Source: Candidatus Hydrogenedentota bacterium (GTDB taxonomy: Bacteria; Hydrogenedentota; Hydrogenedentia; Hydrogenedentales; CAITNO01). Taken from it: a DNA stretch of 64,000 nt. The stretch is taken from the NCBI GenBank assembly GCA_012730045.1, contig JAAYBR010000002.1, positions 28,911-92,910 of the forward strand. Direction: 5' to 3'. The position numbers were made by a program, and so were the translations under genes. Shown here one piece after another: positions 4,287 to 32,602 of this stretch (the stretch's first letter is position 1; every line of letters begins with the position of its first letter). Below the pieces are notes generated by a model, which saw only the letters and a program-made list of their open reading frames with translations, was not told the DNA's origin and did not search any database.

Positions 4287-5031
4287 GAACGCCGTCAGAC
4301 TCCAGAAATTCCTCGCCGAGTGCGGCGTCGCCTCGCGGCGCGCCTCGGAGGAGCTGATCGCGGAGGGGCGCGTCGCCGTGAACGGCGTGACGGCGCGGAT
4401 CGGCCAGACGGTGACCCCCGGCGCGGACCGTGTGACGCTGGACGGCCGGGCCGTCGGGGAGACGGAGGAGAAGGTCTACCTGCTGCTGAACAAGCCGCGC
4501 AACTGCGTGACGACCGCCCGGGACACCCACGGCCGCAGGACGGTGCTGGAGTGCGTGCGCGGCCTGAACTCGCGGGTGTTCCCCGTGGGGCGGCTTGACT
4601 TCGACGTGGAGGGCGCGCTGCTCCTGACCAACGACGGCGAGCTGGCCTTCCGTCTGATGCACCCCCGTTTCGAGGTGGAGAAGGTCTATCTGGCCTGGGT
4701 GCTGGGCGCCGTGACGCCGGAGGCGGTCCGCCGGCTGGAAAGCGGCGTGCGGTTGGAGGACGGCATGACCTCCCCCGCGAAGGCGGCGGTCCTAAACGGC
4801 GGGCCGAAGACCTCGCTCATCCGCCTCACGATCCACGAGGGGCGCAAGCACGAGGTGAAGCGCATGTGCGCCGCCGTGGGCCACCCGGTCCACGCGCTGC
4901 GGCGGGTGGAGTTCGCCGGACTGCCCGTGGAGGGGCTCCGCCCGGGCGAGTGGCGCTGCCTGACGGCGGACGAGGTGGCGCGCCTGCGCGCCCTGGCCGA
5001 AGAAGGGTCCCCGCCCCCCCCTACTCCCTGA
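4279..5031 (+). CDS. rluB: RNA pseudouridine synthase, RsuA/RluB family (S4 domain plus catalytic domain)
   Basis: S4 RNA-binding N-terminus (…LQKFLAECGVASRRASEELI…) and the catalytic motif …PVGRLDFDVEGALLLTNDGE…. Confidence 0.85.
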   Translation: MTENAVRLQKFLAECGVASRRASEELIAEGRVAVNGVTARIGQTVTPGADRVTLDGRAVGETEEKVYLLLNKPRNCVTTARDTHGRRTVLECVRGLNSRVFPVGRLDFDVEGALLLTNDGELAFRLMHPRFEVEKVYLAWVLGAVTPEAVRRLESGVRLEDGMTSPAKAAVLNGGPKTSLIRLTIHEGRKHEVKRMCAAVGHPVHALRRVEFAGLPVEGLRPGEWRCLTADEVARLRALAEEGSPPPPTP

Positions 5032-17605: not shown

Positions 17606-17810
17606 GGGGGGCCTCCAGAAGAAAAACGGGCCTTCCGGCCCTTATTCCAAGTGCGACAGGCGTTTCCGCGTCCACGCGGAACTTTCGGAATGGTAGCAAT
17701 CCCCGCGAAAAATGTCAAACCGCGCGGGACGGAAGGTGGCGCGGGGCTTCCCTGCGGGCTTATGATGGGGTGCCCTGCCCCGGCAGGCGGGCGGGCGGAG
17801 GGTTCCCGCC

Positions 17811-19121
17811 ATGCGCAGCGCGATATTTGTTGACTTCGACAATGTCTTCATCGGCCTGAACGCCCAGGACGAGGCGCTTGCGCGGTCTTTCGCGACGGCC
17901 CCGCTCAAGTGGCTGGAATGGTTTGAAAAATCACTGCCCCTCCACGAGGGCACGCCGGCCCTGGGCCAGCGGCGCATTCTGGTGCGCCGGTGCTACCTGA
18001 ACCCGAAGCAGTTCGGCGACTACCGCCCCTACTTCATCCGCGCCGGGTTTGAGACGGTGGACTGCCCCGTCCTCACGACGTACGGAAAGACCAGCGCGGA
18101 TGTCCACATGGTGCTGGACATTCTGGAACTGCTGAACTATGAGGTGCGGCCGGAGGAGGTCATCCTCCTGTCCGCAGACGCCGATTTCACGCCGGTTCTC
18201 CTGAAACTGCGCAAGTGGGACCTGCGCACCGTGGTGGTGGCCGTGGGCCCCTCGGCGGCGGCCTACCGCGCGGCGGCCGACATTGTCGTGGACCAGGACG
18301 TCTTTGTGGACCTGGCGCTCCAGGCGGTGGGGGAGCAGCGGCCCCGCCGCACCGCGCCCCCGCGCCCGAAGCCGCCCGCGCCGGAACCCCTGGGCGGGGA
18401 GACGGCCCCGCCGCCCGCCCGCAGGCCCGCCCCGCGTCCGGCGGCCCCCGCCGAGCCCGCCGCCAAACGGGAGAAGGACCCCTTCTCCGAGTACCTGCGG
18501 GTCCTCGTGGACGCGGCGTCGGAGCCCATCGCCATGGCGACGCTGGCCGCGTCCTTCCGGCATCAGTTCCCCGATCTGGGGGACACCTGGGGCGCCCACA
18601 GCACCTTCAAGCAGTTTCTCGCGGGACTGGACCTGACGGGCCTGGAAATCTCCAGCGCGTCCCCCGGGCACATCTATGACCCGGCGCGGCACGCGCCGCC
18701 CAAGGACGCCCTGCCCGAATACGAGGAGACGTTCCGGACGAAGCACCCCGACCTGGAGCCGCTGGCCCGAAAAATCAGCCAGCTCACGGACACCCCCTTC
18801 CTGATGCCGGAGGACTACGCCTTCGTCCTGCGCGCCATGGCGGAGGAGACGGGCCCCTCCTACGAGAGCCTGAGCGAGCTGGCCAAAAAGGTCCGGGACA
18901 AGTGCCGCGAGACGGGCATCCCCGTGGGGCGGCAGGCCGTGAACTTCATCGTGCGCGGCATCACCTTCGGCGGGCACCGCTTCGGCAAGACGCAGGACAC
19001 GGCGGCGAAACTCGCCGACCTCTTCATCCAGAACACCGCGACCCTCTGCAGCGGCGCGCAGTTCAACCTGAGCGACAAGGAGACGCGCCTGCTGAAGACC
19101 TGGATCAAGCAGTCCCTCTGA
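17811..19121 (+). CDS. NYN (LabA-like PIN-fold nuclease) domain protein with a Pro-rich linker and C-terminal OST-HTH/LOTUS-like region(s)
   Basis: N-terminus AIFVDFDNV… is typical NYN. The Pro/Ala-rich spacer is PRRTAPPRPKPPAPEP…, and the C-terminal segments resemble OST-HTH. Confidence 0.75.
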   Translation: MRSAIFVDFDNVFIGLNAQDEALARSFATAPLKWLEWFEKSLPLHEGTPALGQRRILVRRCYLNPKQFGDYRPYFIRAGFETVDCPVLTTYGKTSADVHMVLDILELLNYEVRPEEVILLSADADFTPVLLKLRKWDLRTVVVAVGPSAAAYRAAADIVVDQDVFVDLALQAVGEQRPRRTAPPRPKPPAPEPLGGETAPPPARRPAPRPAAPAEPAAKREKDPFSEYLRVLVDAASEPIAMATLAASFRHQFPDLGDTWGAHSTFKQFLAGLDLTGLEISSASPGHIYDPARHAPPKDALPEYEETFRTKHPDLEPLARKISQLTDTPFLMPEDYAFVLRAMAEETGPSYESLSELAKKVRDKCRETGIPVGRQAVNFIVRGITFGGHRFGKTQDTAAKLADLFIQNTATLCSGAQFNLSDKETRLLKTWIKQSL

Positions 19122-19130
19122 CCCGGCGGA

Positions 19131-19172
19131 GAAAAGAAAAACGCCGCGCGCGGCGTGAAACCGCGCGCGGCG
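19131..19172 (-). terminator. rho-independent terminator downstream of rplL; the palindrome may also terminate the convergent NYN gene
   Basis: 12-bp GC stem (CGCCGCGCGCGG…CCGCGCGCGGCG) followed on the minus strand by TTTTTCTTTT. Confidence 0.6.
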
Positions 19173-19193
19173 CAAGAGTCTGCGGGGCGGGGA

Positions 19194-19580
19194 TCAGACG
19201 TTGCCCTTGAGTTCGACGGTGGCGCCGGCCTCTTCGAGGGAGGTCTTGAACTTGTCGGCCTCTTCCTTCGTCAGGCCTTCCTTGATCGGCGTCGGGGCCT
19301 TCTCGACCAGGTCCTTGGCTTCCTTCAGACCGAAGCCGCCGAGGTCCTTCACGACCTTGATCACGCCGATCTTCTGGGCGCCGAAGTCCTTCAGGATCAC
19401 GTCGTAGGAGGAGGGCTCCTCGGGGGCCGCGGCGGCCTCGGCGGCCGGCATCGCGCCCATCATCATGGGGGCGGCGGCCGTCACGCCGAACTTGTCCTCA
19501 AGGGCCTTCACCAGCTCGCTCAGCTCAAGCACGGTCAGGTTGGCCACGCTCTCGATAATCGCATCAAGCTTCTCAGACAT
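19194..19580 (-). CDS. rplL: 50S ribosomal protein L7/L12
   Basis: [33 protein letters not shown]…ATVELK. Confidence 0.95.
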
Positions 19581-19643
19581 GGGTCACTTTTCCTCTTGTA
19601 TGGCCGCCCGGGGCGGCCGTGTTGTTTTCTGTCATCCGCCGTC

Positions 19644-20165
19644 TTAGGCGGCCTGTTCCTTCTGTTGACGAATCTGGTCGAGCACGTTGACCAGGTTGCG
19701 CGGCAGTGCGGCAAGCACGCCGACGGTGTTGCGGAGCGGCATCGCCATGGTCCCGACGACCTGGGCAATGAGCTGCTCGCGCGGCGGAAGACCGGCAAGC
19801 GCCTCGAGCTGGGCCGCCGTGACCGGCTTCCCCTCAAGCACGCCTCCGACCATGGACACAAAGGAAACCTCCTTGCCGAACTCCTTGAGGATCTTCGCCG
19901 GGGCGACGGGGTCCTTGCTGAACGCCCACGCCGTCGGGCCCTCCATGAAGTCCGCGGCGGCCTCCATCCCCTGCGAGCGCAGGGCGCGGCGGGCCAGCGT
20001 GTTCTTGTAGACCTTGAACTCGATGCCGGCGGCCCGGAGGCGGTTCCGCAGCTCGGAAGCCTGCGCCACATTGATCCCCACATACTTCGCGGCGACCGCA
20101 ATCTGGCAGCCTTCCAAACGCTGGGTCATCTCGGCGACCGCGTCAATTTTCTGCTGTGTTGGCAA
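19644..20165 (-). CDS. rplJ: 50S ribosomal protein L10
   Basis: TTG start preceded by AAAGGAGGTG. Sequence …PTQQKIDAVAEMTQRLEG… is typical L10. The longer ORF (to 20336) is an upstream artefact. Confidence 0.9.
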   Translation of the reverse strand: MPTQQKIDAVAEMTQRLEGCQIAVAAKYVGINVAQASELRNRLRAAGIEFKVYKNTLARRALRSQGMEAAADFMEGPTAWAFSKDPVAPAKILKEFGKEVSFVSMVGGVLEGKPVTAAQLEALAGLPPREQLIAQVVGTMAMPLRNTVGVLAALPRNLVNVLDQIRQQKEQAA

Positions 20166-20340
20166 AACGCATTCACCTCCTTTCAAGAGAACCGCGCTTT
20201 CGCGCGCGCGGCGCGGCAACGGCCGCGCCAGGTAAAAAAATCCCCGCGCCGTGGGTGACAGCGCGGGGACTTGGCATTCCAAACCTGCCGGGGCGTTTCC
20301 GCCCCGCCATGCCCTGCGGCATGGACTAGTCCGCATCTCG
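20166..20340 (-). promoter_or_regulatory. putative structured 5' leader of rplJL (L10-leader-like autoregulatory region)
   Basis: Several stable stem-loops sit immediately upstream of rplJ. The assignment is by position only. Confidence 0.3.
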
Positions 20341-20548
20341 GCTGGGTATTAAGGCCCTGCGGCCACCGGCTGTCTGCGACACGCGTCCCGCAAAACTTCG
20401 CGGGGACAGGGCTAAGAATACCAAAAACACGCCGTCCGATGCAAGACACGGACGGATGACAAACGACGCACCGCCCCTGATCCACGGACAAGACATCGTG
20501 AAAACCGGCGCCGAGGCGGGAACGAGGTTGCTTCAGGCGCTGCGCGCC

Positions 20549-20608
20549 TTCGCAATGACGCGTATTTCCGCAGTCATTGCGAGCGAAGCGCGGCAATCTC
20601 GTTCCCGC
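20549..20608. repeat. short palindromic dispersed repeat, family 2 (tcgcaatgac…gtcattgcgagcgaagcg…caatctcg), single copy
   Basis: Shares about 40 of 55 positions with the tandem copies at 62104..62244 and has an internal inverted repeat. Confidence 0.4.
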
Positions 20609-20697
20609 CAACGCCTCGACCTACGCTACGGGCCGCCACGAAAACCCTTCGTCGGAAAGCCCCGGGTCCGTCCGTGTCCGTCCGTGCGGTTTCCGGA

Positions 20698-21822
20698 CTA
20701 CCGCCAGCCCTTGTCCCGCTCAATCCTTCGGATCTCCTTCGCGATCCCCCGCCAACGGGTCTTCTCGATCTGGCGGGCGCTCTGTTCCTGGCGCAGCTCC
20801 TGGTACCGGATCTCCCGCCGCAGTTTTTCGTAGCTGCGGAAGCGGCCCCCATCCAGCGTGCCGCCCTCGAGCGCGGCGCGCACCGCGCACCCGGGCTCGT
20901 TCTCATGCGTGCAGTCGGCAAACCGGCACTGCGCCGCCAGGGCCTCCACGTCGGCGAAGGCCGTCTCCAGCCCGTCGTCGTCCGACCAGATCTGCAGCTC
21001 GCGCATGCCGGGCGTGTCCATGATCAGGCCGCCCCCGGGCAGCGGGATCAGCTCCCGCTGCGTCGTTGTGTGGCGGCCCCGGCTGTCGTCAGCGCGCACG
21101 GCCCGCACGGCCTGGCGCTCCCGGCCGAGCAGGGCGTTCACCAGCGACGACTTCCCGACACCCGACGACCCGAGAAGGGCCCCCGTGGCGCCCGGCGGCA
21201 GCAGCGCGCGCAGCGCGTCCACACCGCGTCCCGTCGCCGCGCTCAGCACGGCCACCGGCGCGCCGGGGGCCGCGGCCTCGGCCTCGGCCACGCGGGCGTC
21301 CACCTCCCCGCAGAGGTCCGCCTTGTTCAGCACGACCACCGGCCGCGCGCCGCTGTCCCACGCCACCGTCAGGTAGCGCTCCAGACGGCGGAGGTTGAAG
21401 TCGCCGTCCAGGCTCGTCACCAGAAACACGACATCCACGTTGGCCGCGACCACCTGCTCCTCCGTGCGGTCACCCGCCGCGGTGCGCGAAAAGCGGCTCC
21501 GCCTCGGAAGCACCGCGTGCACCGTCGCCGCGTCCTCCTCCTCGCGCGGCGACACCGCCACCCAGTCGCCCACGGCGGGCCACTCCGCCCGCGCCGGGTG
21601 CTCATGGCGGAACCGGCCGGAAAGCTCCGCCCAGAGGTCGCCCGACGCCCCGGCCGCCACATACGCCTCGCGGTGCTCGCACACCACCCGCGCGGGTTCC
21701 CACCCGCGCCCCAGATACGGTTCCATCTGCCCGGCCCACCGGGCGTCCCAGCCAAGGGCCGCCAGCGCCGGACACACGGGGACGGAATCGTCCCCGAAAG
21801 GCTCATCATGAGGGATGCTCAT
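20698..21822 (-). CDS. rsgA: ribosome small-subunit-dependent GTPase A
   Basis: Circularly permuted GTPase motifs (…VLNKADL… then …GSSGVGKSSLVNAL…DTPG…) and a C-terminal zinc-finger with Cys residues. Starts at MSIPHDE. Confidence 0.85.
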   Translation of the reverse strand: MSIPHDEPFGDDSVPVCPALAALGWDARWAGQMEPYLGRGWEPARVVCEHREAYVAAGASGDLWAELSGRFRHEHPARAEWPAVGDWVAVSPREEEDAATVHAVLPRRSRFSRTAAGDRTEEQVVAANVDVVFLVTSLDGDFNLRRLERYLTVAWDSGARPVVVLNKADLCGEVDARVAEAEAAAPGAPVAVLSAATGRGVDALRALLPPGATGALLGSSGVGKSSLVNALLGRERQAVRAVRADDSRGRHTTTQRELIPLPGGGLIMDTPGMRELQIWSDDDGLETAFADVEALAAQCRFADCTHENEPGCAVRAALEGGTLDGGRFRSYEKLRREIRYQELRQEQSARQIEKTRWRGIAKEIRRIERDKGWR

Positions 21823-22113
21823 TGCTGTTCTCCGTTGAAAAGGCACACTTCTCTCATCAGGGAAAGAACGGAAAACGTGCGACGGCGCGGGCTGAAGACA
21901 CACAGCCACCCCGGACGGGCGGCGAAAAGGCGGGAAAGGAAACTACCCCAGCCCTCAGCGGCCGGACCGGAAGCGCGGCATCGCACACTGCACGGCAATA
22001 TCCATAACGCCTCCATGGTTGGTTGGGCCCTCCAACAAGGGCGACCCCGGTTCATTCAACGGGGGATATTGTAGTGCATGCGGGGGCGCGGTGCAAACTG
22101 TAAGCGCAAGAAG

Positions 22114-22440: not shown

Positions 22441-23379
22441 ATGATCCTCACAGTCACCCCGAACCCCTGCGTGGACAAGACGGTCTTCATCGCGCGCCTG
22501 GAGCCCGGCGGGCGTTTCCGCAGCCCGAAATGCACCCACATCCCCGGCGGCAAGGGCACCAACGTGTCGCGTGCCGTGAAGGCCCTCGGCGGCGACACGG
22601 CGGCCCTGGTCATCGTGGGCGGGCACACGGGCCGCCACGTGGTGGACATGATCGAACAGCAGGACGGGGTGCGCTGCGTGCCCGTGTGGGTAGCCGGCAT
22701 GACCCGCGTCATCACCACGGTGCTGGAGACGGACGTCCACCGCCAGACCGCCCTCTTCGACCCCGGCTCCCCCGTGACCGCCGCAGAGGGGGACGCCGTG
22801 GCGGCCGCCTTCGGCCGCGAGGTGCGCGGCGCCGCCGTCGCCACGTTCAACGGCTCCGTGCCCGACCCCGCCCTCGTGGACCTCTATGTCCGGTGCATCC
22901 CCCTCGCGCGGGAGGCCGGCGCCTTCACCATCCTCGACTCCTACGGCGAGGAGTTCCGCCGCGGCATCGCCGCCGGGCCGGACATGGTCAAGCCGAACCG
23001 CGAGGAGGCGGAGCGCCTGCTCGGGCGGAAACTGGAGACCCGCGCCGACTGCTGGGCCGCCGTGGACGCCTTCCACGCCATGGGCGTGCCGCTCGTCGTC
23101 CTGTCCCTGGGCGCTGAAGGCGCGCTCGTCTCCCGGAAAGGCGGCACCCGCCTCGAAGTGACCCCGCCCCCCATCGAGGAGGTCAACCCCGTCGGCTCCG
23201 GCGACGCGCTCGTCGCCGGGTTCGCCGTCGGCATCGAGCGCGGTCTCCCCCTCGACGAAACCGCCCGCCTCGCCGTCGCCTGCGGCACCGCCAACGCCCT
23301 CTCCTGGGACATCGGCCACTTCACCGCCAAAGAGGTGGAGGAGCTCGCCGCCCGCGTGCGGGTGGCGGCGATAGTCTAA
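22441..23379 (+). CDS. PfkB-family sugar kinase (1-phosphofructokinase / tagatose-6-phosphate kinase-like)
   Basis: N-terminal …LTVTPNP(C/S)VDKT… and C-terminal …NPVGSGDALVAGF… motifs typical of FruK/LacC. Confidence 0.8.
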   Translation: MILTVTPNPCVDKTVFIARLEPGGRFRSPKCTHIPGGKGTNVSRAVKALGGDTAALVIVGGHTGRHVVDMIEQQDGVRCVPVWVAGMTRVITTVLETDVHRQTALFDPGSPVTAAEGDAVAAAFGREVRGAAVATFNGSVPDPALVDLYVRCIPLAREAGAFTILDSYGEEFRRGIAAGPDMVKPNREEAERLLGRKLETRADCWAAVDAFHAMGVPLVVLSLGAEGALVSRKGGTRLEVTPPPIEEVNPVGSGDALVAGFAVGIERGLPLDETARLAVACGTANALSWDIGHFTAKEVEELAARVRVAAIV

Positions 23380-23689
23380 GCCTCTTGGACGCAACACAGA
23401 GGTTGGTATAGACAGACCGCAACACTCTCATCACTGAACCGACTACAGGCCCATCGAATCCACAAGACGCCGTCTGTCCACAGGAACCCTTTTCCACCTC
23501 GAATCGCACGCTAGTGAGCGTTTCTTCGTGCTCGTAATCAGGCAAGGCCCACCAGGCAAGAGAGTACCCTGGACTTGTGTACGGTGTGCTCCTGATCGAC
23601 AGAGACCCACGCCCCGCGCGGGCATCTGACTACCTGCTTGCGCGCTATCGCTAGCCCTGCGTAAGGCCTGTATACAAGATGCGGTCCGG

Positions 23690-24523
23690 CTAGTTAATCC
23701 GGCTCATCAGCAGCAAAGCCACACGGGTGGCAACCTCAGTTGCTGAACCAAGCTTAACCTCCTCGGTGGTCGCCGAAGCCATGACCCGCCCATCGGAAAG
23801 GGAAATGGCCTTGGCAATGATCACGGGCACTTCAACCGCATAGTCTCCGGAGACTTTCCGCACCATGCTTTGGCCCTTCTTCACCCGGGCACTAACCACA
23901 ATGTCCGCATGTTCTTTTACAGACGCCACCTGCGCCTGTTGCGCCTGTGGCAGCTCCGGATTAGCGAAAACAGCGTCCACATCGATACCTGACAGGCCGA
24001 TCGCCACGCTCCGGTCAACCAGCACCGCGCCGCCATCCATGAAGGGGCGCTCCAGACTGTGCTGAATAGATTCAAGCTCGTCTTCCGTGAAGTCGTTTGC
24101 GCCGGGTCCCTTGGGAACATAGACTTCCTCCACCGACTCGCCACGGGCCTTAAAGGTTCCTTCTTGGCTTGACTCCGCAGTGACCGATGCCGCTCCCGTC
24201 ACCTTCAGCACCTTCTGCATCGTCCGATCATCGTTATCCTGCATGTCACGGTTCACCAAGACTATGACTCGTGGGGCTTTTTTCCCTGAAAATGCCGTCC
24301 TGAATGCCTCTATTCCGTCCCTCGCCTCTTCCGACATGGTCGGGGTTCGCCTGTCAATTTGCTGCGCAAGTGGGGGGCGGTCAGGTGAAGGCACCACATG
24401 CGGCCTCTGGGGTAGTTCTGCTGAAGGAGCAACCACCGTGTTGGAAGACTGCGTCATGGCCACGCCCTGGAAGGCGCAAACCGACACGACCATGAAAGCC
24501 AGCATCCTTATATGTACCACCAT
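23690..24523 (-). CDS. hypothetical secreted/lipoprotein (277 aa), last gene of the low-GC lipoprotein operon
   Basis: Signal peptide, AGGAGG SD, about 52-55% GC. No family is confidently recognised. Confidence 0.55.
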   Translation of the reverse strand: MVVHIRMLAFMVVSVCAFQGVAMTQSSNTVVAPSAELPQRPHVVPSPDRPPLAQQIDRRTPTMSEEARDGIEAFRTAFSGKKAPRVIVLVNRDMQDNDDRTMQKVLKVTGAASVTAESSQEGTFKARGESVEEVYVPKGPGANDFTEDELESIQHSLERPFMDGGAVLVDRSVAIGLSGIDVDAVFANPELPQAQQAQVASVKEHADIVVSARVKKGQSMVRKVSGDYAVEVPVIIAKAISLSDGRVMASATTEEVKLGSATEVATRVALLLMSRIN

Positions 24524-24534
24524 GACCGAACCTC

Positions 24535-24957
24535 CTATCGCTCCATTCTGATGCGAATGGAGTATTGTTGTGATCTTTCGTTCAGAGCGACCGCCTTGTA
24601 AGTGGACTGGCCGTTAGGCGGGAGAATGAGTGTCACCCAGGCCGTCTCATCACCAGAAGAAAATCCAGCATCGTCCTTGAAGACTGTCTGCGCTTGGACG
24701 TTCACCGCATTGTCGGAATTGTTTCTGAGAATTGCCTCGGCGATAATCCGACCTTCAGTAGTGTAGCTGGCACGTTGGGCGTCTACGCTGATGAGTTTCT
24801 GCAGGGGCTTGTCAAGCAGAACCAGAGACTCTGTTCCTTCTAGGCTTGTCCCACGTTTAAGGGGTGCGTAGGGACCTTGCGTTTGACATCCCACTCCAAC
24901 CAGCAGGAATGCAATTAGAATGAGAGTCATCACCGCATATTGAACGTTAGTTTTCAT
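24535..24957 (-). CDS. small lipoprotein, YcfL/DUF1425-like
   Basis: Signal plus lipobox-like LLVGVGC; AAGGAG SD; size and pattern resemble E. coli YcfL. Confidence 0.55.
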   Translation of the reverse strand: MKTNVQYAVMTLILIAFLLVGVGCQTQGPYAPLKRGTSLEGTESLVLLDKPLQKLISVDAQRASYTTEGRIIAEAILRNNSDNAVNVQAQTVFKDDAGFSSGDETAWVTLILPPNGQSTYKAVALNERSQQYSIRIRMER

Positions 24958-24986
24958 AGTAATTCTCCTTGATGTGTTCACGTTGT

Positions 24987-26729
24987 TCATGTTTTTTCTC
25001 GCGACTTTTTGGAAGACGACTTCGGAGTGCTCTCGTCGTTCTTCCCAACAGATTTAGATATCTTGTACTTTCCGATTTCGGACATTCCTGATGCACTTAC
25101 AAAGTATGCTGTCCCCGTGGAGGCTGTGGAACTCTTCGATGTCTTTCCTGTCAACAGCAGATGCATGGACTTGTCAGGGGTGCAGTGATATTCAATTCGC
25201 ATGGCTTTTTTATCAATTGCACCCGAACAGGGAAACACTCCTTCAGGCCACCCCCCACCTGTTGTCTTGACGTAACCAGCGAAGGTCTCGTCCTGCCTAG
25301 AAATGACTGCCAGTTCAATGTTAACCTGCTCTTTCTTCTTTCCCCAACCGCCTGTCCATCTTTCAGACGCGTTACCAATCAGAGATGCGCCCTCTTCGGT
25401 GTATTTGGCGAAGCGCACATTGTTGACCTGGACGCCAAAACTTGGATCCCATGCAGTTAAGACATCAAATGGCTGGTCGCTTCGTGTAATCTGACCATCA
25501 GTGACCGTCCCCGTTTCCGTGCATTTTATCTGTATAGTGTGGGTGCCTGGGGAGAGGTTCAGTGGTATGATGTAGATATCATCTGGAACAGACAACATTC
25601 GAATATCGGCCGCAGGATTGGCTGCGGCGGATATTCCCTTGGAAATCAGACCTAGCACCATTAACCCCGCTCCCACCCCCGGCGCTGAGTCGCTGTCCCC
25701 AACGCCGGCGGCCAAAGCCCCGGAAACGATAGCAAGGTCGCCCGCCACGCTGGCCCCCTTCTTGAACTGGGCCTTTCCCTTGAGAATGGCATCAACAGCC
25801 CTCCCCCCCCGCGTCATGGCCTGAAAAGACATGTTGTCCAGCGGACCGTCCATGGTTGCAACGGAAGTTCCATTAATCAGGACATCGAGTGGACCAGACG
25901 CGCCACTTCCCGAATTGAAACGCAGAAACTGGGCATATTCTCCTGTCGCGTATTTTTTTGGACCGACACCAAGACCAATAACCAAAAGGGAATTAACGCC
26001 ATCAGGAATCGGCAACACGGCGTTTTCACTTCTCGCATGCTCCCGAGACACTTTTAGGCACTCATCGGAACGGTCCTGCAAGCCGAGCATCGTGTTGCAT
26101 ACCGCCTCGCAATAGTCCATCTCAGCAAGATCATCGTGATACTCCTCATCCTTTTTGGCATCTTCAGAGGAGCGATCAACAAGAGCACCCGACCTAAACA
26201 TAGCGCGGGCATTCTCATAATCACCTGCGCACATGTATAGAAGCCCTCGCTGGAGGTAGATCATGGCCTGCTCATATGGTTCACCGCGGAAGTTCTTCTC
26301 ATCCTCGCCTTTGAAAGTGGAGCGGGCTTTCTTGGCACTTTCATCGCCAGCACTGGAGCCCCCTATTCGTGTCAGAATCAGATCAAGAACGCGAGTCGCC
26401 TCTTCCATGTTTTTCGCGGCGAGTTGCTGATGGTAGATATGCCAGAGAACTAGCACAGCGCCGCGGTTTCCGACTTCCTCAAGAGATTTATATTCCGCTT
26501 GGAGTTCTGGCGGCATCTCCGAAAGATTAGGCGGCATGCAGTCCTGCACTTGCTCTATAGCTGCCTTTTGCTCGTCTTTCTTCTTTTGCTTATTTCTTTT
26601 CATATAGTCGTCCGCAGAATCGGCAATTGCTGAAACCGAAAAAAGAGCGATCGAAATAATGAAAAACAGTATTGACTTCAATGCTGAAGTGGAACCCATT
26701 TCTAATCTCCTTTTTGTGATGAATCGCAC
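24987..26729 (-). CDS. hypothetical secreted protein (about 570-580 aa) with signal peptide, Lys/Glu-rich N-terminal segment and Ser/Lys-rich C-terminus
   Basis: Signal …ILFFIISIALFSVSA; low GC; stop overlaps the next gene. No family recognised. Confidence 0.6.
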   Translation of the reverse strand: MRFITKRRLEMGSTSALKSILFFIISIALFSVSAIADSADDYMKRNKQKKKDEQKAAIEQVQDCMPPNLSEMPPELQAEYKSLEEVGNRGAVLVLWHIYHQQLAAKNMEEATRVLDLILTRIGGSSAGDESAKKARSTFKGEDEKNFRGEPYEQAMIYLQRGLLYMCAGDYENARAMFRSGALVDRSSEDAKKDEEYHDDLAEMDYCEAVCNTMLGLQDRSDECLKVSREHARSENAVLPIPDGVNSLLVIGLGVGPKKYATGEYAQFLRFNSGSGASGPLDVLINGTSVATMDGPLDNMSFQAMTRGGRAVDAILKGKAQFKKGASVAGDLAIVSGALAAGVGDSDSAPGVGAGLMVLGLISKGISAAANPAADIRMLSVPDDIYIIPLNLSPGTHTIQIKCTETGTVTDGQITRSDQPFDVLTAWDPSFGVQVNNVRFAKYTEEGASLIGNASERWTGGWGKKKEQVNIELAVISRQDETFAGYVKTTGGGWPEGVFPCSGAIDKKAMRIEYHCTPDKSMHLLLTGKTSKSSTASTGTAYFVSASGMSEIGKYKISKSVGKNDESTPKSSSKKSREKT

Positions 26730-26749
26730 AAATATTTATGAGGGGGCCG

Positions 26750-27361
26750 TTACCTATAGGCTGCGTCCTCAACACCTTCCTTTTTTATTTCAGAGAACTC
26801 TTCCCACTCCTCTATCCCCGTTTCCGCATTAATCAGCCTAAATGTATAGAGAATGTAGTCAGATTGACCTGTGGAAGAAGCTTGCGAAAGCCCCGTAAGC
26901 TCTCCCGTAAGAAAGTAATCGACTCCCGCCATAATACCTTCACCCGAAGACCCGACCATGCCCTCGCGCTTCATCTCTCGCTCTCTCTCCACCGCCTCTA
27001 TCCGGTCACGTGCGACAAACTGAACCGCCCCCCTGCATTGGGTGTTAAGTAAGGCTTTTATACGTTTATTGAATATGTCCTTGTTGATTGGAAATCGCGT
27101 GTCGTTCACCACCGGAAGCAATCCTATAACCGGAGGAGTTTGGGCGTTGGCAATCGCGGGGGTTGAAAGAACAGACCTAGCCATCTTGTCGCTCACTTCC
27201 TGAAGATCCTGTGATCCCACCCCAGTGCCCTCACCCTTACTCGGCTGGCTCGGATCAACCCTGCGCGGACCTATGCCTCCGGGGTTGTCGACCCCTGATG
27301 TGGCGCAACCGCATATCATCGCAACAACCAGACACAACGCCAACGCGACCAAATTTCTCAT
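26750..27361 (-). CDS. LpoB-like lipoprotein (COG3417; PBP1B activator family)
   Basis: Signal and lipobox; collinear motif pattern with E. coli LpoB (…LLPVVNDTR… / …VDYFLTGEL… / …YILYTFRLINAETGIEEWE…). Confidence 0.6.
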   Translation of the reverse strand: MRNLVALALCLVVAMICGCATSGVDNPGGIGPRRVDPSQPSKGEGTGVGSQDLQEVSDKMARSVLSTPAIANAQTPPVIGLLPVVNDTRFPINKDIFNKRIKALLNTQCRGAVQFVARDRIEAVEREREMKREGMVGSSGEGIMAGVDYFLTGELTGLSQASSTGQSDYILYTFRLINAETGIEEWEEFSEIKKEGVEDAAYR

Positions 27362-27853
27362 GACCTTATTCACTCCTCTAAAACAGTTGGGACTCCCTGC
27401 AACACATGGCGACATTCACCATGAGATTCGCTCGCTTCTGCTGTTCTGCGTCTGGAAGGGTGCTCTCCCGATTCGCCCCTTCCGCCAAGGGGGAAAGAAC
27501 GGGCATGTCTCCAGAGAGGCTCTCCCCCAAAAGCCTCGGCCTCCCAGAAGGAGCCGCCAGCGACCCGTCTGACCGCTCCCCCGCGCACCGGCAGTCCCCG
27601 GGAAAGAAATGCGAACCGATATATCCGCTGTGAGTGGCACACAGCCCCACGGGGACGGCTACTTTTTCCAAGAACCTCACCATACGCGCCAATTTAGCAG
27701 AATATATCCGCAATGTCAATAGGGAACGCCCATCCCTCCCGCCGGATACGGCGGGGAACGGAATCAGGCGCGTTGTGTTAACGCGCAGAGGAATTCATGC
27801 TGGCGAGAAAGGGATGCCCCTCACCCGCCAGGTAGGACGATCCTGCCGGGAAA

Positions 27854-27952
27854 GAAGAGGGCGCGGCAAGCGGTGGCCCTTACCTGCCTATGCCTCGGCA
27901 CACACGAAAACGCCGGGCAACCCGCTTGCAGGGGAGCCACTTGTTGCGCCCT
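27854..27952. repeat. REP/MITE-like palindromic element, family 1 (diverged copy)
   Basis: AAGAGGGCGCGGCAAGCGGTGGCCCTTAC … GCAGGGGAGCCACTTGTTGCGCCCT with terminal inverted repeats. Confidence 0.5.
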
Positions 27953-28119
27953 GGAGCGAACACATAGGCCATCGCTTATCCGACGATCCTGGACCCATCC
28001 GATTTGCCGCTCTTGCAATCGGCGGGCGCATGCGCCAGAATAGGGGGTGCAAGGGACCGGGCATCCGGTGGCCATTTCCGGCGGGGGTTTCCGCCGGACA
28101 ACCCAAGGAGACACAGGAC

Positions 28120-29445
28120 ATGGAGATTTCCCGCAGGCATTTTCTTAACTCGTCGGCGGCGGTGCTGGCGGCGGGCGTCATGGCGCACGGGCGCGTCTGG
28201 GGCGCCAACGAGAAGATCGGGGTGTGCGTCGTGGGCGTGAACGGCCGCGGCGGCTCGCACATTGAGGGGTTCAGCAAGAGCCCGGATTCGGAGGTGGTGG
28301 CGCTGTGCGACGTGGACGCGCGGGTGCTGGAGCGCGTGGCGAAGCAGGTGGAGAAGGAGACCGGGAAGAAGCCGAAGACCTACCGCGACATGCGGGAGGC
28401 CTTCGCGGACCCGGATGTGGACGCGGTGGGCATCGCCACGCCGAACCACTGGCACACGCTGGCGGCGGTCTGGGCGGCGCAGGCGGGCAAGCATGTCTAT
28501 GTGGAGAAGCCGGCGACGCACAACATCTACGAGGGCCAGCAGCTGGTGGCGGCGGCGGAGAAGTACAATGTGGTGATCCAGCACGGCACGCAGTCGCGCT
28601 CGGACAGGCAGTGGCTGCGCGACATCGCGCTGCTCCAGTCGGGGGAGATCATCGGGCCGCTGTACATGGCCCGCGGCCTCGGCTACAAGAACGGGAACCG
28701 CGGCGCCATCGGCAACGAGCCGGACTCGGACGCGCCCGAGACGCTCGACTGGGACCTCTGGCAGGGGCCGGCGTCGCGCAAGCCGTTCAACAAGATGTAC
28801 CACCCCTACAACTGGCACTGGTTCTGGCACTGGGGCAACGGCGAGATCGGCAACCAGGGCATCCACCAGCTGGACATCGCGGCGTGGGGCATGAACCGGG
28901 GCCTGCCGGTGCGGGTGGACAGCGTGGGCGGCCGTTACACCTACGAGGACGCGGGCGAGACGCCGAACACGAACGTGGCCACGTTCATCTACGAGGACGG
29001 CACCATGCTGGTCTTCGAGGTGCGCAACCGCTGGACCAACGACGAGGGCGGCCGCATGCTCGGCGACAAGTTCGCGGGCGGCGTCGGCGTGGGCAACCTA
29101 TTCTACGGCGACGGCGGCTACTATGTGGAGGACCAGGGCTTCTTCGACAAAAAGAACGAGCCGATCCCGGTGGACAACGCGAAATACCCGTTCCCGGAGT
29201 CGAAAGGCTGCTGGCAGAACTTCCTGGAGGCGGTGAAGGCGAACGACAAGACGAAGGTGTACGGCGACATGAAGGCGGCGCACGTCTCCTCCGGCATGGC
29301 GCACCTGGCGGGCATCTCCTACCGCCTGGGCACCTCGCTGAAGTTCGACCCGAAGACCGAGACCTTCACCGGCGCGCCGTCCGAGGCGAACGCGATGCTC
29401 ACGCGCGAGTACGCGAAGGGCTTCGAGGTCCCGAAACTCGCCTGA
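28120..29445 (+). CDS. Gfo/Idh/MocA-family NAD(P)-dependent oxidoreductase with Tat signal
   Basis: MEISRRHFLNSSAAVLAAG twin-arginine signal; Rossmann motif GVCVVGVNGRGGSH; AAGGAG SD 9 nt upstream. Confidence 0.85.
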   Translation: MEISRRHFLNSSAAVLAAGVMAHGRVWGANEKIGVCVVGVNGRGGSHIEGFSKSPDSEVVALCDVDARVLERVAKQVEKETGKKPKTYRDMREAFADPDVDAVGIATPNHWHTLAAVWAAQAGKHVYVEKPATHNIYEGQQLVAAAEKYNVVIQHGTQSRSDRQWLRDIALLQSGEIIGPLYMARGLGYKNGNRGAIGNEPDSDAPETLDWDLWQGPASRKPFNKMYHPYNWHWFWHWGNGEIGNQGIHQLDIAAWGMNRGLPVRVDSVGGRYTYEDAGETPNTNVATFIYEDGTMLVFEVRNRWTNDEGGRMLGDKFAGGVGVGNLFYGDGGYYVEDQGFFDKKNEPIPVDNAKYPFPESKGCWQNFLEAVKANDKTKVYGDMKAAHVSSGMAHLAGISYRLGTSLKFDPKTETFTGAPSEANAMLTREYAKGFEVPKLA

Positions 29446-29600
29446 TCCCCTGCGGGGCCTGACGTCGGCGGGGCCTCCTGAGGTGGCATGGGCATCTTGA
29501 CCATGTTCTTGAGCGTGCGCAAGCGCCCCGACCACGGGCTGGAAGCCCGTGCCACCTCAAGGGCGGCTTCGCGTGGGGAACCGGTCTGTGGTGCTTTGAA

Positions 29601-29650
29601 AAAACAGCGCCGGGCGCGGCTGCAGGGGCCGCGCCCGGCGTTCTTTCTAA
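29601..29650. terminator. bidirectional rho-independent terminator between convergent genes
   Basis: A-tract, 13-bp GC stem (CGCCGGGCGCGGC/GCCGCGCCCGGCG), then TTCTTTCT. Confidence 0.55.
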
Positions 29651-30778: not shown

Positions 30779-31288
30779 GGCGTGCGTCTCCTGGGTGGGG
30801 TTGCGGTTTGACGCCGCCTATTGTGCCACAGCGGCCCGCGCCGGGGCATCCCGCAGGGCAATCGCACTAAAATCTGGCCACCCTTTCTGACAAAGAGTTC
30901 TTTCGCCCCCTGCTCCGTGTTCTTTTCAACGCTGAAAGCGTTGCCGAATATAGCCCAGGCCAGGCCGCCGCCCGAAGGGCCAGGCCTGCCCTGGGTTGCC
31001 CGGACAGAAAGAATCATGCCCCAACGGGGCAGCCGAAATTGCGGCGGGGAGTGCCGTGCCGGCCTTGGGGGAAACGCGCGGTAACGGGTCGTCTTTTGTG
31101 TGCCCCCGCGCGGGCAAGCCCACGCGAAGAAAGGCGGCAGCAAGCTACCGCACTCCAAGGCGCTGCGCGCTGTGCGGACCCGGGGCTGCGGTAATGGGCG
31201 GCGGGCGTTGACAACACGGAGATAACCGGCTATAATTCTTTCCAGTTAGTGGCCTAACTGGAACAATTTCTTACCGGATGAGTGATCC

Positions 31289-32602
31289 ATGCTGGAGACC
31301 GTCAAATCACTCCTGCTCGATTTTCAGGAAATGCGCCTGGACACCGGCGTGCCCCGCCGTCTGCAGATGGAGACGGTCCGGAACAAGGCCGCCGTGTGCA
31401 TTGGCGTGCGGCGGAGTGGAAAGTCCACCTTTCTCTTCCAGTCCATAGAACGCCTCGTCGGCGGGGGAGTTCCCCGGGAGAACATCCTTTATCTGAACTT
31501 CTTCGATGACCGTCTTCATGGTCTCCGGCAGGACAATATCGGCCTCGTTATGGAGGCCTATTACTCCCTGTATCCCGAGAAGAAGGGCCGTGAGACAATC
31601 CATTGTTTCTTCGATGAAATCCAGGCGGTGCGGGGATGGGAGTCCTTTGTGGACCGGCTGATACGGACAGAGAAGTGCGTTGTCCACCTGACGGGCTCCT
31701 CGGCGGGCATGCTTTCCAAGGAAGTGGCCACACAGATGCGCGGACGGGCGCTTTCCTGGGAGATGTTCCCCTTTTCCTTCCGGGAGTTCCTTGACTTCAA
31801 GAAAATTGACGCGGCGACGCCCCTTTCAACACGAAAACGGCTGCTGGTCAAGAAAGCTTTTTCCGAATACTGGGAAACGGGGGGATTTCCGGAAGTCGCC
31901 GGCCTGCCCGGCCATCTGCGGGTGAAAATCCATCAGGAGTACTTCCAAACGATCCTCTTCAGGGATCTTGTGGACCGGCACGACGTCCAGCATCCCCGGG
32001 CGGTGCGTGATCTCGCGCACCGGCTGGTGGACAACCCGGCCTCCCTATACACGATCAACCGCCTTACCGCTTATCTGAAGTCGCTGGGACACAAGGTGCC
32101 GAAATCCTCCGTCTCGGACTACCTGGCGTGGTTTGAGGACGCCTATTTCCTTTTCACTGTCCGCGTGTTCGACGCGTCGTCTGCGCGCCGGGAGACCAAC
32201 CCAAAACGCGTGTACTGCGTGGACCACGCGCTGGTGTCCTCGGTCTCATCGGGCATCCTGGTGAATGCCGGGCACCTCTTGGAGAATCTGGTCTTCGTCG
32301 CCCTGCGGCGCCTGCATCCGACGCTCCACTATTACAAGACCAAGACAGGCCGGGAGGTTGATTTTGTCGTTCCGGGACGTGGCGGCGCACGGGCACTGGT
32401 TCAGGTGTGCGAATCACTGGCGGAGGAGGAGACACGAAAACGGGAGGTGACGGCTCTGGAGGAGGCGATGTCCGAGCTGGGCCTCGAGGAGGGCACCATT
32501 GTGACCCGCAGTGAGGAGGAAGGCATCCGGGGCGGGGCGGGACGAATCCGGGTGGTTCCCGCGTGGCATTTTCTTCTGGAGCTTCCGGACATGCCCGACT
32601 AG
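31289..32602 (+). CDS. AAA+ ATPase (AAA_14 plus DUF4143 family, COG1373)
   Basis: Walker A GVRRSGKST and a C-terminal DUF4143-like region. Local GC about 58-60%. Confidence 0.75.
   Translation: MLETVKSLLLDFQEMRLDTGVPRRLQMETVRNKAAVCIGVRRSGKSTFLFQSIERLVGGGVPRENILYLNFFDDRLHGLRQDNIGLVMEAYYSLYPEKKGRETIHCFFDEIQAVRGWESFVDRLIRTEKCVVHLTGSSAGMLSKEVATQMRGRALSWEMFPFSFREFLDFKKIDAATPLSTRKRLLVKKAFSEYWETGGFPEVAGLPGHLRVKIHQEYFQTILFRDLVDRHDVQHPRAVRDLAHRLVDNPASLYTINRLTAYLKSLGHKVPKSSVSDYLAWFEDAYFLFTVRVFDASSARRETNPKRVYCVDHALVSSVSSGILVNAGHLLENLVFVALRRLHPTLHYYKTKTGREVDFVVPGRGGARALVQVCESLAEEETRKREVTALEEAMSELGLEEGTIVTRSEEEGIRGGAGRIRVVPAWHFLLELPDMPD

Follow-up and report, generated by a model that had tools for sequence, protein, structure and literature searches.

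A low-GC genomic island in a Hydrogenedentota genome carries a widespread envelope module with LpoB-family and DUF1425 lipoproteins

The closest described systems are found in Campylobacter and Helicobacter, where Cj0091 and HP1457 are reported to be LpoB homologs, syntenic with the reported TPR lipoproteins Cj0089 and HP0018 (453–469 aa; PMC3100323, PMC11394524). Cj0091 is located at the outer membrane and influences adherence and colonisation (Oakland et al. 2011, PMC3100323). Deletion of HP0018 in H. pylori leads to loss of helical shape and to hypervesiculation, and the protein co-immunoprecipitates with AmiA and MltD (PMC11394524). We assigned Cj0090 (PDB 4GIO) to DUF1425 by Pfam (E = 1e-18). 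A more distant system is that of E. coli K-12, in which ycfL stands immediately upstream of lpoB, a neighbourhood that an earlier note on the DNA studied here had cited correctly.

The window that we analysed is a 64-kb stretch of DNA (64,000 nucleotides) from a Candidatus Hydrogenedentota bacterium, and the four packed minus-strand genes that the earlier note had listed in it, here called g1 to g4, were recovered in place as open reading frames. Judged by composition, the module they form is probably equivalent to the cj0089-cj0090-cj0091 and HP0018/HP1457 operon. Both systems consist of co-operonic genes for three proteins, secreted or lipidated, that match in size and type: a TPR protein (453–469 aa there and typically 390–450 aa in the g2 family, likened by size and type), a DUF1425 lipoprotein of ~120–140 aa, and an LpoB-family outer-membrane lipoprotein of ~205 aa. 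The gene order differs by cyclic permutation, g1-g2-g3 here versus TPR-DUF1425-LpoB in C. jejuni. The present locus also has a fourth gene, g4, its g2 has a signal peptide but no lipobox and bears an added C-terminal avidin-like barrel, and the island that holds the module was transferred recently. Like these systems, E. coli has DUF1425 and LpoB-family lipoproteins in one operon, both with lipoboxes, but in the order ycfL, lpoB and without g2 and g4; ycfL-lpoB looks like a reduced, distant relative of the module.

Direct reading of the sequence bore out the AGGAG-type ribosome-binding sites and the signal peptides or lipoboxes that had been claimed for all four genes. GAGGAG precedes the g1 start (ATG 27361), from which the protein runs through MRNLVALALCLVVAMICG|C, a lipobox; AAGGAGA precedes g2 (ATG 26699), whose signal peptide ends in ...SAIA|DS; AAGGAGA also precedes g3 (ATG 24957), which enters its lipobox at ...LLVGVG|C; and TAGGAGG precedes g4 (ATG 24523), with a signal peptide ending in ...GVA|MT. 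We moved the start of g2 from GTG 26729, which had given a 580-aa frame, to ATG 26699 (570 aa), because a Shine-Dalgarno sequence stands before this ATG and homologs are 567–574 aa long. With the starts supported in this way the intergenic gaps are 50, 29 and 11 nt and no genes overlap; the ATGA overlaps described earlier reduce to one, seen only with a longer alternative g3 frame starting at 24990.

The first gene, g1 (26750–27361, minus strand), encodes a 203-aa LpoB-family outer-membrane lipoprotein composed of a lipobox (Cys19), a disordered linker of ~30 aa and a globular domain. It matched the full-length Pfam LpoB domain (PF13036; 58.9 bits, E = 7e-16, gathering cut-off 22.3), and in this respect the resemblance to LpoB reported in the earlier note stood. 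Against the TIGR02722 equivalog g1 scored 54.9 bits, well under the cut-off of 110.55, and E. coli LpoB reaches 218 bits. Aligned directly with E. coli LpoB, g1 gave an hhalign probability of 38% (E = 3e-4, 15% identity), the g1 family profile found no LpoB chain in the PDB, and the Pfam match to CsgG was weak (16.1 bits, under the cut-off of 20.8). G18 and C19 are invariant in the family and the C-terminus, ...IKKEGVEDAAYR, is near-invariant, being conserved in all 83 sequences. g1 and E. coli LpoB share a Pfam family and the succession of disordered linker and globular domain, but the g1 linker is half as long (~30 versus ~57 aa) and the invariant tail of its family, ...DAAYR-COOH, is absent from E. 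coli LpoB. On these profile matches g1 is a member of the LpoB family, though not a demonstrated PBP1B activator.

The g2 product (24987–26699, minus strand) is a secreted protein in which a TPR domain (~64–221) is followed by a beta domain, a glycine-zipper-like hydrophobic helical hairpin (~304–359), a second beta domain and a clade-specific, 8-stranded avidin-like barrel at the C-terminus (~446–549). Residues 315–360 form two moderately hydrophobic helices rich in Gly and Ala, and the best fold matches of the TPR domain are TPRs that bind C-terminal peptides (Sgt2, PP5, Sti1/Hop and CHIP). The family spans at least 591 species genomes; relatives occur in Verrucomicrobiota, Alpha-, Beta- and Gammaproteobacteria, Thermodesulfobacteriota and Methylomirabilota. 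The g3 product (24535–24957, minus strand; 140 aa, lipobox at Cys24) is YcfL-like, as had been proposed, with a match to DUF1425 (PF07233; 37 bits, E = 3e-9, cut-off 28.3), and its family profile hit DUF1425 structures, namely 3o0l (E = 0.005) and the Cj0090 structure 4gio (E = 0.15). C24 is invariant in this family, and the conserved C-terminus of g3, ...YSIRIRMER, corresponds to a near-invariant family tail, ...RVRxAR-COOH, that E. coli YcfL lacks. The 277-aa g4 product (23690–24523, minus strand) is secreted and combines a Pro-rich linker with a globular domain that has the TolB-N/CsgG/PelC/LpoB-type fold; its family evolves fast and has no Pfam model. Compared with lipoproteins of the CsgG/PelC/TolB-N superfold, g4 lacks a lipobox, and we saw no significant sequence similarity, transmembrane hairpin, barrel partner or substrate genes.

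The gene neighbourhood proposed for a search, COG3417 and DUF1425 with both remaining genes, proved to be conserved: g1, g2 and g3 lay in this order in 81 of the 85 related loci, and g4, an optional fourth gene, came next in 41. Although earlier described as lacking any recognisable family, g2 and g4 are each part of a conserved family that accompanies g1 and g3. All four genes are also present on a Sphingomonas plasmid. The genes studied here are very probably a member of a conserved, widespread envelope lipoprotein module, g1-g2-g3(-g4). In 80 other genomes the difference between cassette and flank GC averaged +0.004 (range −0.05 to +0.07), and this native composition together with the housekeeping-gene surroundings suggests that the cassette's role is mostly that of a vertically inherited core function.

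Here the same difference was −0.15. Sliding-window GC bore out the low-GC segment in a high-GC background that the earlier note had described, with a trough of 0.44–0.60 (400-nt windows) at ~23400–27800 and 0.65–0.77 on both sides, and with 0.534 (53%) for the island against 0.685 (68%) for the remainder of the window. The contrast was greater in GC3, which was 0.55, 0.53, 0.53 and 0.65 for g1 to g4 and 0.94, 0.88, 0.96 and 0.96 for the flanking PfkB, RsgA, Gfo/Idh/MocA and PurH-like genes. We delimited a 4.63-kb island (23376–28008) by this composition and by blastn and alignments against two metagenome contigs (L091 and L092), in which the site is empty. Its left end is the stop codon of a native PfkB-family sugar kinase (22441–23379, plus strand; PF00294), convergent with g4, and a native Gfo/Idh/MocA oxidoreductase (28117–29445, plus strand; PF01408) flanks it on the right. 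In both contigs these two genes are joined via ~200 bp of GC-rich spacer unrelated to the island; the flanks are 96–97% identical to the window, and 4.6 kb of the window has no counterpart. Homology ends at the PfkB stop codon (~23375) and restarts at ~28009, from where the right flank shows 97% nucleotide identity to both. Since close relatives of the host do not have the 4.6-kb piece, it is very probably an acquired island of foreign origin, and the horizontal acquisition suggested earlier is supported by its composition, by the empty site and by the native GC of the cassette in 80 genomes. The nearest cassette relatives (L001–L003) reside in DNA of 46–52% GC, one of them adjoining an integrase, an anti-restriction gene and RadC. 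The island resembles genomic islands of atypical composition: it forms a discrete insert whose GC and codon usage are foreign, it is present or absent among >95% identical strains, and it carries an accessory operon. Unlike them, it has no integrase or transposase or other mobility gene in the region examined, no tRNA target, there being no tRNA in the entire window, and no flanking direct, inverted or terminal repeats; the absence of integrase and tRNA had been correctly noted before. The island takes the place of the ~200-bp spacer, precisely from one of the convergent or tandem native genes to the other, and this fits homologous or illegitimate recombination better than site-specific integration. 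Purifying selection acts on each of the four genes (dN/dS 0.12–0.32).

We give the following overall reading a probability of roughly 60%: an acquired island without mobility genes placed a complete, self-contained copy of an ancient envelope operon in a 68%-GC genome, probably with its own promoter. The four proteins would come together on the inner face of the outer membrane, with g1 as the outer-membrane LpoB-family lipoprotein, g3 as an Ig-like DUF1425/YcfL lipoprotein, g2 as a secreted scaffold and g4 as a periplasmic protein of TolB-N/CsgG/PelC-like fold. The glycine-zipper hairpin of g2 would associate with the membrane, and its TPR domain would dock partners, possibly via the C-terminal tails of g1 and g3, although such tail docking is a rather doubtful part of the proposal. 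The complex might modulate peptidoglycan-remodelling enzymes or the coupling of outer membrane to wall, distinct from the enterobacterial LpoB-PBP1b switch; a function in peptidoglycan or outer-membrane homeostasis is tentative. The neighbours of the loci offered no clue to function: penicillin-binding proteins, amidases and lytic transglycosylases were not enriched among them.

An assembly or binning chimera, in which the low-GC segment would be foreign to this genome, might be suspected from the sharp composition step at both ends and from several related contigs that break near window position 27806. This reading was in effect refuted, and we regard it as extremely improbable: both junctions are contained in the window itself, divergence between strains is comparable for island and flank, and the same filled junction, with the high-GC PfkB gene (GC3 0.92) attached to the low-GC g4, is crossed by contigs from at least five independent samples (L086–L090). 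The low GC is thus not the artefact that the earlier note had named as a possible objection, and its question about close relatives is answered by the island being absent from L091 and L092 and filled in these five. Alternatively, g1 could be a true LpoB, and the cassette would then provide an outer-membrane activator of a class A PBP of the PBP1b type, as in E. coli, together with accessory factors. The whole-domain Pfam match, the lipobox with disordered linker and the DUF1425 partner agree with this, but the equivalog score, the low identity and hhalign probability, the short linker and the C-terminal tail missing from real LpoB all speak against it, and a match to LpoP reflects generic TPR similarity. 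The module is also spread over many phyla, whereas LpoB and the UB2H docking domain are, reportedly from work by Typas in 2010, confined to Enterobacteria and close relatives, and we find this alternative improbable.

It is somewhat less improbable, though still unlikely, that the module works as a CsgG/HfaB/PelC-type machine for export or assembly at the outer membrane. Lipoprotein rings of g1 and g4, with a PelB-like TPR partner, would then secrete an adhesin, amyloid or polysaccharide. In favour of this, g1 has its weak match to CsgG, a Sphingomonas homolog is labelled 'CsgG/HfaB family protein' by PGAP, the Cj0091 mutant is defective in adhesion (PMC3100323), and polysaccharide genes lie near three loci (L004, Wza/Wzz; L002, Alginate_exp; L139, nucleotide sugar dehydrogenase). 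However, this CsgG match is sub-threshold, a protein of 203 aa is too small for the CsgG transmembrane hairpins, the cassette has no substrate or barrel gene, the shared fold is frequent in periplasmic lipoproteins (e.g., TolB-N, LptE and LpoB), and polysaccharide or secretion families showed no enrichment among the 66 to 67 neighbours on each side. The acquisition seen here, the relative next to an integrase and anti-restriction gene, and the plasmid copy would also suit a mobile cargo that alters the cell surface against phage adsorption or other exogenous attack, as TraT, Llp and Cor lipoproteins do; if g2 belongs to COG3014, so would a preprint (10.64898/2026.04.04.715981) in which a protein with a COG3014 domain is one of the listed predictors of Vibrio phage host range. 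Yet no PADLOC model matched any of the four proteins, the module was not found in 50,697 phage records or in IMG/VR, a g2 relative occurred on only 2 of 72,556 plasmids, and the cassette stands at native GC among housekeeping genes in 80 genomes, which makes a defensive cargo a poor prospect.

The upstream portion of the island (27362–28008, 59–63% GC) differs from L086 by 4-nt and 1-nt indels and is therefore not coding, and it had no Rfam match. Within it, the element at 27822–27888, previously taken for a REP-like repeat at 27854, occurs once in the window (3 mismatches tolerated), so the REP reading was not borne out. A consensus scan placed a candidate sigma-70-like promoter (27691–27719, minus strand; TTGACA-17-TAAATT, with a TG upstream) inside the island, ~330 nt before the g1 ATG; this is a pattern match only, as chance alone predicts 2.4 such sites for the region and 1 was observed. 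The nucleotide identity of PfkB to the window was 97.5% in L091 and 95.0% in the other filled strain; by this gene the empty-site strains are nearer to the window than the other filled strain is, which weakens the case for gain over loss.

Base composition changes abruptly just beyond the PfkB gene (22441–23379, plus strand): in 400-nt windows, GC falls from 0.70–0.75 (22.4–23.4 kb) to 0.44–0.60 (23.4–27.8 kb), the deepest trough of the 64 kb at 1-kb resolution, and returns to 0.65–0.69 beyond 27.8 kb. GC was 0.534 in the segment 23376–28008, hereafter the island, compared with 0.685 in the remainder of the window, and GC3 was 0.55, 0.53, 0.53 and 0.65 for the genes g1 to g4 compared with 0.94, 0.88, 0.96 and 0.96 for the four nearest native genes, so the GC step described in the earlier note is real and sharp. 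As that note had also proposed, the island encodes four ORFs on the minus strand, and in the sequence we could read an AGGAG-type ribosome-binding site 6–9 nt upstream of each ATG and an N-terminal secretion signal on each product: g1 (26750–27361, lipobox ...MICG/C), g2 (24987–26699, signal peptide ...AIA/DS), g3 (24535–24957, lipobox ...GVG/C) and g4 (23690–24523, signal peptide ...GVA/MT). The start of g2, previously placed at a GTG at 26729, was corrected to the ATG at 26699 (homologs are 567–574 aa long). With the chosen starts, the intergenic spacings are 50, 29 and 11 nt (g1–g2, g2–g3 and g3–g4), and the ATGA overlaps reported earlier disappear, an ATGA overlap arising only with an alternative, extended form of the g3 ORF.

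The island holds these four genes and non-coding DNA, with no further genes. We consider the 650 nt upstream of g1 non-coding because they carry frame-breaking indels relative to L086, a metagenomic contig with the same cassette; pattern matching gave one sigma-70-like match in this region (27719–27691), and Rfam gave no riboswitch or leader RNA. The element at 27822–27888 that had been called REP-like occurs once in the window and has no Rfam match, and was therefore rejected as a REP or MITE.

When metagenomes were scanned with the PfkB protein from the flank, two contigs with an empty site were identified, L091 and L092, which are 95–97% identical to the window on either side of the island. 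In both, an unrelated, GC-rich spacer of ~200 bp separates PfkB from sequence matching the window from 28009 onward, and homology on the other side ends at the PfkB stop codon (~23375). Because homology breaks at ~23375 and 28009, the window carries 4.63 kb (23376–28008) where its close relatives carry 0.2 kb; atypical composition thus coincides with an empty site in close relatives, as expected of a genomic island. An assembly chimera, which the earlier note had named as one of two refuting outcomes, would also join DNA of discordant composition. However, five contigs from independent samples join the cassette to the same PfkB gene (L086–L089 at 90% identity, L090 at 98.6%) through an identical junction, and show the same contrast (GC3 of 0.92 for PfkB versus 0.52–0.64 for the cassette), and a chimera can thus be considered excluded for practical purposes. 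We also considered whether the genes themselves impose a low GC through amino-acid composition or expression level, and rejected this because cassette GC follows host GC in 80 other genomes, where the difference between cassette and flank averages +0.004 (range −0.048 to +0.069) and is −0.15 here. From the GC and GC3 contrast, the empty site and the native GC of the cassette elsewhere, we conclude, with a probability of roughly 0.9, that the island is well-delimited, horizontally acquired foreign DNA.

The nearest relatives of the cassette, which have a long form of g2 (L001–L003), sit in DNA of 46–55% GC, making their lineage a plausible donor. In one of these, a 60% identical relative (L001, 178–5738), the cassette adjoins an integrase, a second integrase fragment, an anti-restriction protein, RadC and a GP88-like gene, a context that suggests an integrative element. 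The island itself shows none of the hallmarks of mobility (integrase or transposase, tRNA target, flanking repeats): the earlier statement that it lacks an integrase and a tRNA holds, the whole window being free of tRNA genes, and we found no terminal direct or inverted repeats at its ends. Since the window PfkB is closer to that of empty L091 (97.5% identity) than to that of filled L086 (95.0%), recombination or secondary loss must have taken place. Comparison of the window with L086 shows purifying selection on each of the four genes (dN/dS of 0.16, 0.12, 0.14 and 0.32 for g1 to g4; PfkB, 0.19). Synonymous divergence from L086 is uneven (dS of 0.19 for g1 and g4, 0.40 for g2, 0.77 for g3 and 0.13 for PfkB), a pattern that may reflect recombination within the island or a mosaic origin. 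Three contigs that were assembled independently, L086, L088 and L089, stop at the same window position, 27806, each leaving ~36 terminal bases unaligned, and L087 ends at 27804 with none; these ends suggest strain heterogeneity or a repeat just inside the island's right-hand boundary in the samples concerned.

Starting from the four proteins, we built HMMs in iterative rounds and used them to search six-frame ORFs of 85 related loci. The genes g1, g2 and g3 were adjacent, in the same orientation and in fixed order in 81 of these; of the four exceptions, three are cut by contig ends and one (L061) has g1 elsewhere on the opposite strand. Downstream of g3, g4 was present in 41/85 loci, and many of the loci lacking it have a different or diverged ORF of 250–300 aa in its place. 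By sequence comparison, g1-g2-g3(-g4) is thus very probably a conserved module to which the island genes belong. A complete four-gene copy lies on the 114-kb, non-mobilizable Sphingomonas hankookensis plasmid pSZ.B2R2_2 (L139; NZ_CP117027.1, 57894–61272), where the adjacent genes encode a nucleotide sugar dehydrogenase and a diguanylate cyclase/phosphodiesterase; the g1 homolog of this copy carries a signal peptide and lacks the lipobox cysteine.

No recurring function emerged from a Pfam scan of cassette neighbours (66 upstream, 67 downstream). A link to polysaccharide export, considered because such genes occur in three loci, was rejected, as the scan revealed nothing more than housekeeping synteny specific to individual lineages (His_biosynth in 16, CTP synthase, DNA ligase). 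The sole small signal was Gly-zipper lipoproteins directly upstream in 5/66 loci, several from Verrucomicrobiota (Gly-zipper_YMGG, Gly-zipper_OmpA and Rick_17kDa_Anti families), which may be related to the glycine-zipper-like hairpin of g2. The module was not found in phage records or IMG/VR, PADLOC models gave no match to g1–g4 at E ≤ 0.01, and plasmid carriage is rare, with hits on two plasmids. Because of these results and the uninformative neighbours, we regard the module as an envelope operon that is usually chromosomal and inherited vertically, and the window as an instance of its rare and recent transfer.

The 570-aa product of g2 had been described as having no recognisable family, which proved incorrect: we found at least 173 cluster-level homologs and relatives in at least 591 species-representative genomes. 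A g2 homolog is also present in the genome of Horticoccus luteus, which can be cultured. The family alignment contains the invariant motifs KxFxGEPYE, YRGLLY, ENARA, FQAxTRGGR and NPxADxR. It belongs to the TPR proteins by sequence model or fold, and structural searches match its TPR domain best to TPRs that hold C-terminal peptides in a clamp. Its AF2 model (pLDDT 85.4, pTM 0.80) has a beta domain, a helical hairpin (~304–359) of two long Gly/Ala-rich, moderately hydrophobic helices, and a second beta domain; no solved structure matching the whole protein was found. The hairpin is a predicted glycine zipper, and one clade of g2 proteins additionally has an avidin-like barrel. The resemblance of g3 to YcfL held up: it matches DUF1425 (PF07233) with 37 bits (cut-off 28.3), has a lipoprotein signal with a Cys24 that is invariant within its family, and its family profile matches both DUF1425 structures in the PDB, 3o0l and 4gio, whose membership Pfam confirms. 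The predicted structure of g4 resembles CsgG/HfaB in fold and no further, and hhalign matches the fourth Sphingomonas protein to the g4 family (probability 96.8%, E = 2.5e-10). We rejected the idea that g4 is a diverged paralog of g1, as the two share only a fold class with no sequence signal (hhalign probability 0.6%). The analysis therefore adds to the module a recurrent fourth component with a predicted CsgG/TolB-N-like fold.

The combination of LpoB-family and DUF1425 lipoproteins encoded with a TPR protein, found in the window and the 85 related loci, is that of cj0089–91 and HP0018–HP1457. In C. jejuni, cj0089 encodes a 453-aa TPR lipoprotein and cj0091 a 207-aa outer membrane protein of the LpoB/COG3417 type, whose mutant shows weaker adherence and early chick colonisation (PMC3100323). 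Cj0090 (122 aa, solved as 4GIO; PMC7857515) is DUF1425 by our Pfam search and is the counterpart of g3. HP0018 of H. pylori is the Cj0089 homolog, and synteny between it and the LpoB homolog HP1457 is seen in enterohepatic Helicobacter species. Cells deleted for HP0018 are less helical and form chains of outer-membrane vesicles, and the protein co-immunoprecipitates with AmiA and MltD (PMC11394524). We took the identities of Cj0089/HP0018 and Cj0091/HP1457 from these reports (PMC3100323, PMC11394524). Sizes, domain types and operon membership match g2, g3 and g1, and the module is probably equivalent to the Campylobacter/Helicobacter operon, with the g2–Cj0089 link drawn from composition, sizes and literature; among the g2 family matches listed, none was from Campylobacterota by name. 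E. coli K-12 has a two-gene version (hinT-ycfL-lpoB-thiK-nagZ). The island carries a four-gene variant of a known, mechanistically uncharacterised envelope operon.

The earlier reading of g1 as LpoB-like stood at the level of the family. The lipobox is present and g1 matches Pfam LpoB (PF13036) over the whole profile (1–147/147; E = 7e-16, 58.9 bits, cut-off 22.3), but it scores 54.9 bits against the TIGR02722 equivalog, below the cut-off of 110.55, and E. coli LpoB scores 218 bits. Single-sequence and small-profile searches for a direct link to E. coli or PDB LpoB were empty, the g1-family profile matched no LpoB chain in the PDB, and beyond Pfam and TIGRFAM only a weak hhalign match to E. 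coli LpoB connects them (probability 38%, E = 3e-4, 15% identity over 133 columns). Between Cys19, the lipobox residue invariant within the family, and the start of the aligned globular domain (~S50), g1 has a linker of ~30 aa compared with ~57 aa in E. coli LpoB; in that reference, a disordered linker of about 55–60 aa is able to reach PBP1b. A canonical LpoB acting on PBP1b would account for the Pfam match, yet this role is improbable because of the equivalog failure, the short linker and the spread of the module across a wide taxonomy, and we would caution against annotating g1-type proteins as "PBP activator LpoB". LpoB function further calls for a partner in the genome, a class A PBP carrying a UB2H docking domain, and in those parts of the 64-kb window that we inspected no PBP was identified. 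The score of g1 against CsgG/HfaB (PF03783) is also below the cut-off (16.1 bits versus 20.8), and its Sphingomonas homolog reaches 19.9 bits.

All four proteins carry export signals, and g1 and g3 have invariant lipobox cysteines, showing at the sequence level that both are lipoproteins. Across phyla, in 83 related loci, these two end in near-invariant tails (g1 ...IKKQGLEDAAYR-COOH, encoded at 26750–26785; g3 ...YTIRVRQAR-COOH, encoded at 24535–24570). The g1 consensus is I-K-K-Q/E-G-L/V-E-D-A-A-Y-R-COOH, with Y and R invariant in 83/83 sequences and the YR end retained even in the divergent Sphingomonas copy (...GVLYR), and that of g3 is ...Y-T-I-R-V-R-x-A-R/H. No such conservation was seen at the C-termini of g2 and g4 in the family sequences, and E. 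coli LpoB and YcfL lack the g1/g3 tails.

The module is conserved and under selection, and its module-specific tails lend support to a model in which the four proteins would form a complex beneath the outer membrane with g2 as scaffold. Because the tails are conserved and the g2 TPR domain resembles TPRs that clamp C-terminal peptides, we propose, tentatively and at odds clearly below even, that this domain docks the tails of g1 and g3. Such a complex might control peptidoglycan remodelling or outer-membrane-to-wall coupling, since the Helicobacter phenotypes point that way; a function in peptidoglycan or outer-membrane homeostasis is accordingly the reading of function that we favour, at somewhat less than an even chance. 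Export of the CsgG/PelC kind is less supported and appears doubtful, and a role in surface protection, also less supported, appears unlikely. More speculatively, the module could be a new, phylum-spanning envelope machine in which g2 clamps g1 ...DAAYR-COOH and g3 ...RVRxAR-COOH and, with g4, controls either outer-membrane tethering or the enzymes that hydrolyse or synthesise peptidoglycan. Enterobacterial LpoB and YcfL would then be its stripped-down descendant. We give this a low likelihood; if true, it would account for how LpoB arose and for the unexplained ycfL–lpoB linkage, and the island would be evidence that the complete machine can pass between distant bacteria as a 4.6-kb unit.

Hundreds of species, Campylobacter and Helicobacter among them, carry the LpoB-like/TPR/DUF1425 operon, to which no mechanism has been assigned. 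To this system our analysis contributes the conserved core and its order, the fourth component, the g2 hairpin and barrel, and the g1/g3 tails, from which a concrete docking hypothesis follows. As the island illustrates, the module behaves as a portable unit, and strains with and without it, ~97% identical in shared flanks, offer a clean natural experiment on its role. This is a moderate lead that overturns no current understanding, and its main use lies in the filled/empty strain pair and in structural hypotheses for the HP0018/Cj0089–LpoB-like–DUF1425 system.

Other differences lie nearby. A ~4.4-kb segment of native-like GC (17742–22110) is missing from 96%-identical L091 (locus 4321 to 4344); it encodes an NYN-domain protein (17811–19121), a Ribosomal_L10-domain ORF (19644–20336, minus strand) and an RsgA GTPase (20698–21909, minus strand). 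The ~150 bp at 29450–29603, between the Gfo/Idh/MocA gene and a PurH-like gene, are reduced to ~8 bp in L091 and L092, genomes otherwise 95–97% identical. A second, shallower GC trough (~31200–32200, 0.555–0.59) coincides with a gene for an AAA_14 + DUF4143 ATPase (31289–32602, plus strand), which L092 carries at 88% identity without window positions 30853–31202 directly upstream, and whose product strongly matches the PADLOC candidate defence family PDC-S01 (E = 4e-103).
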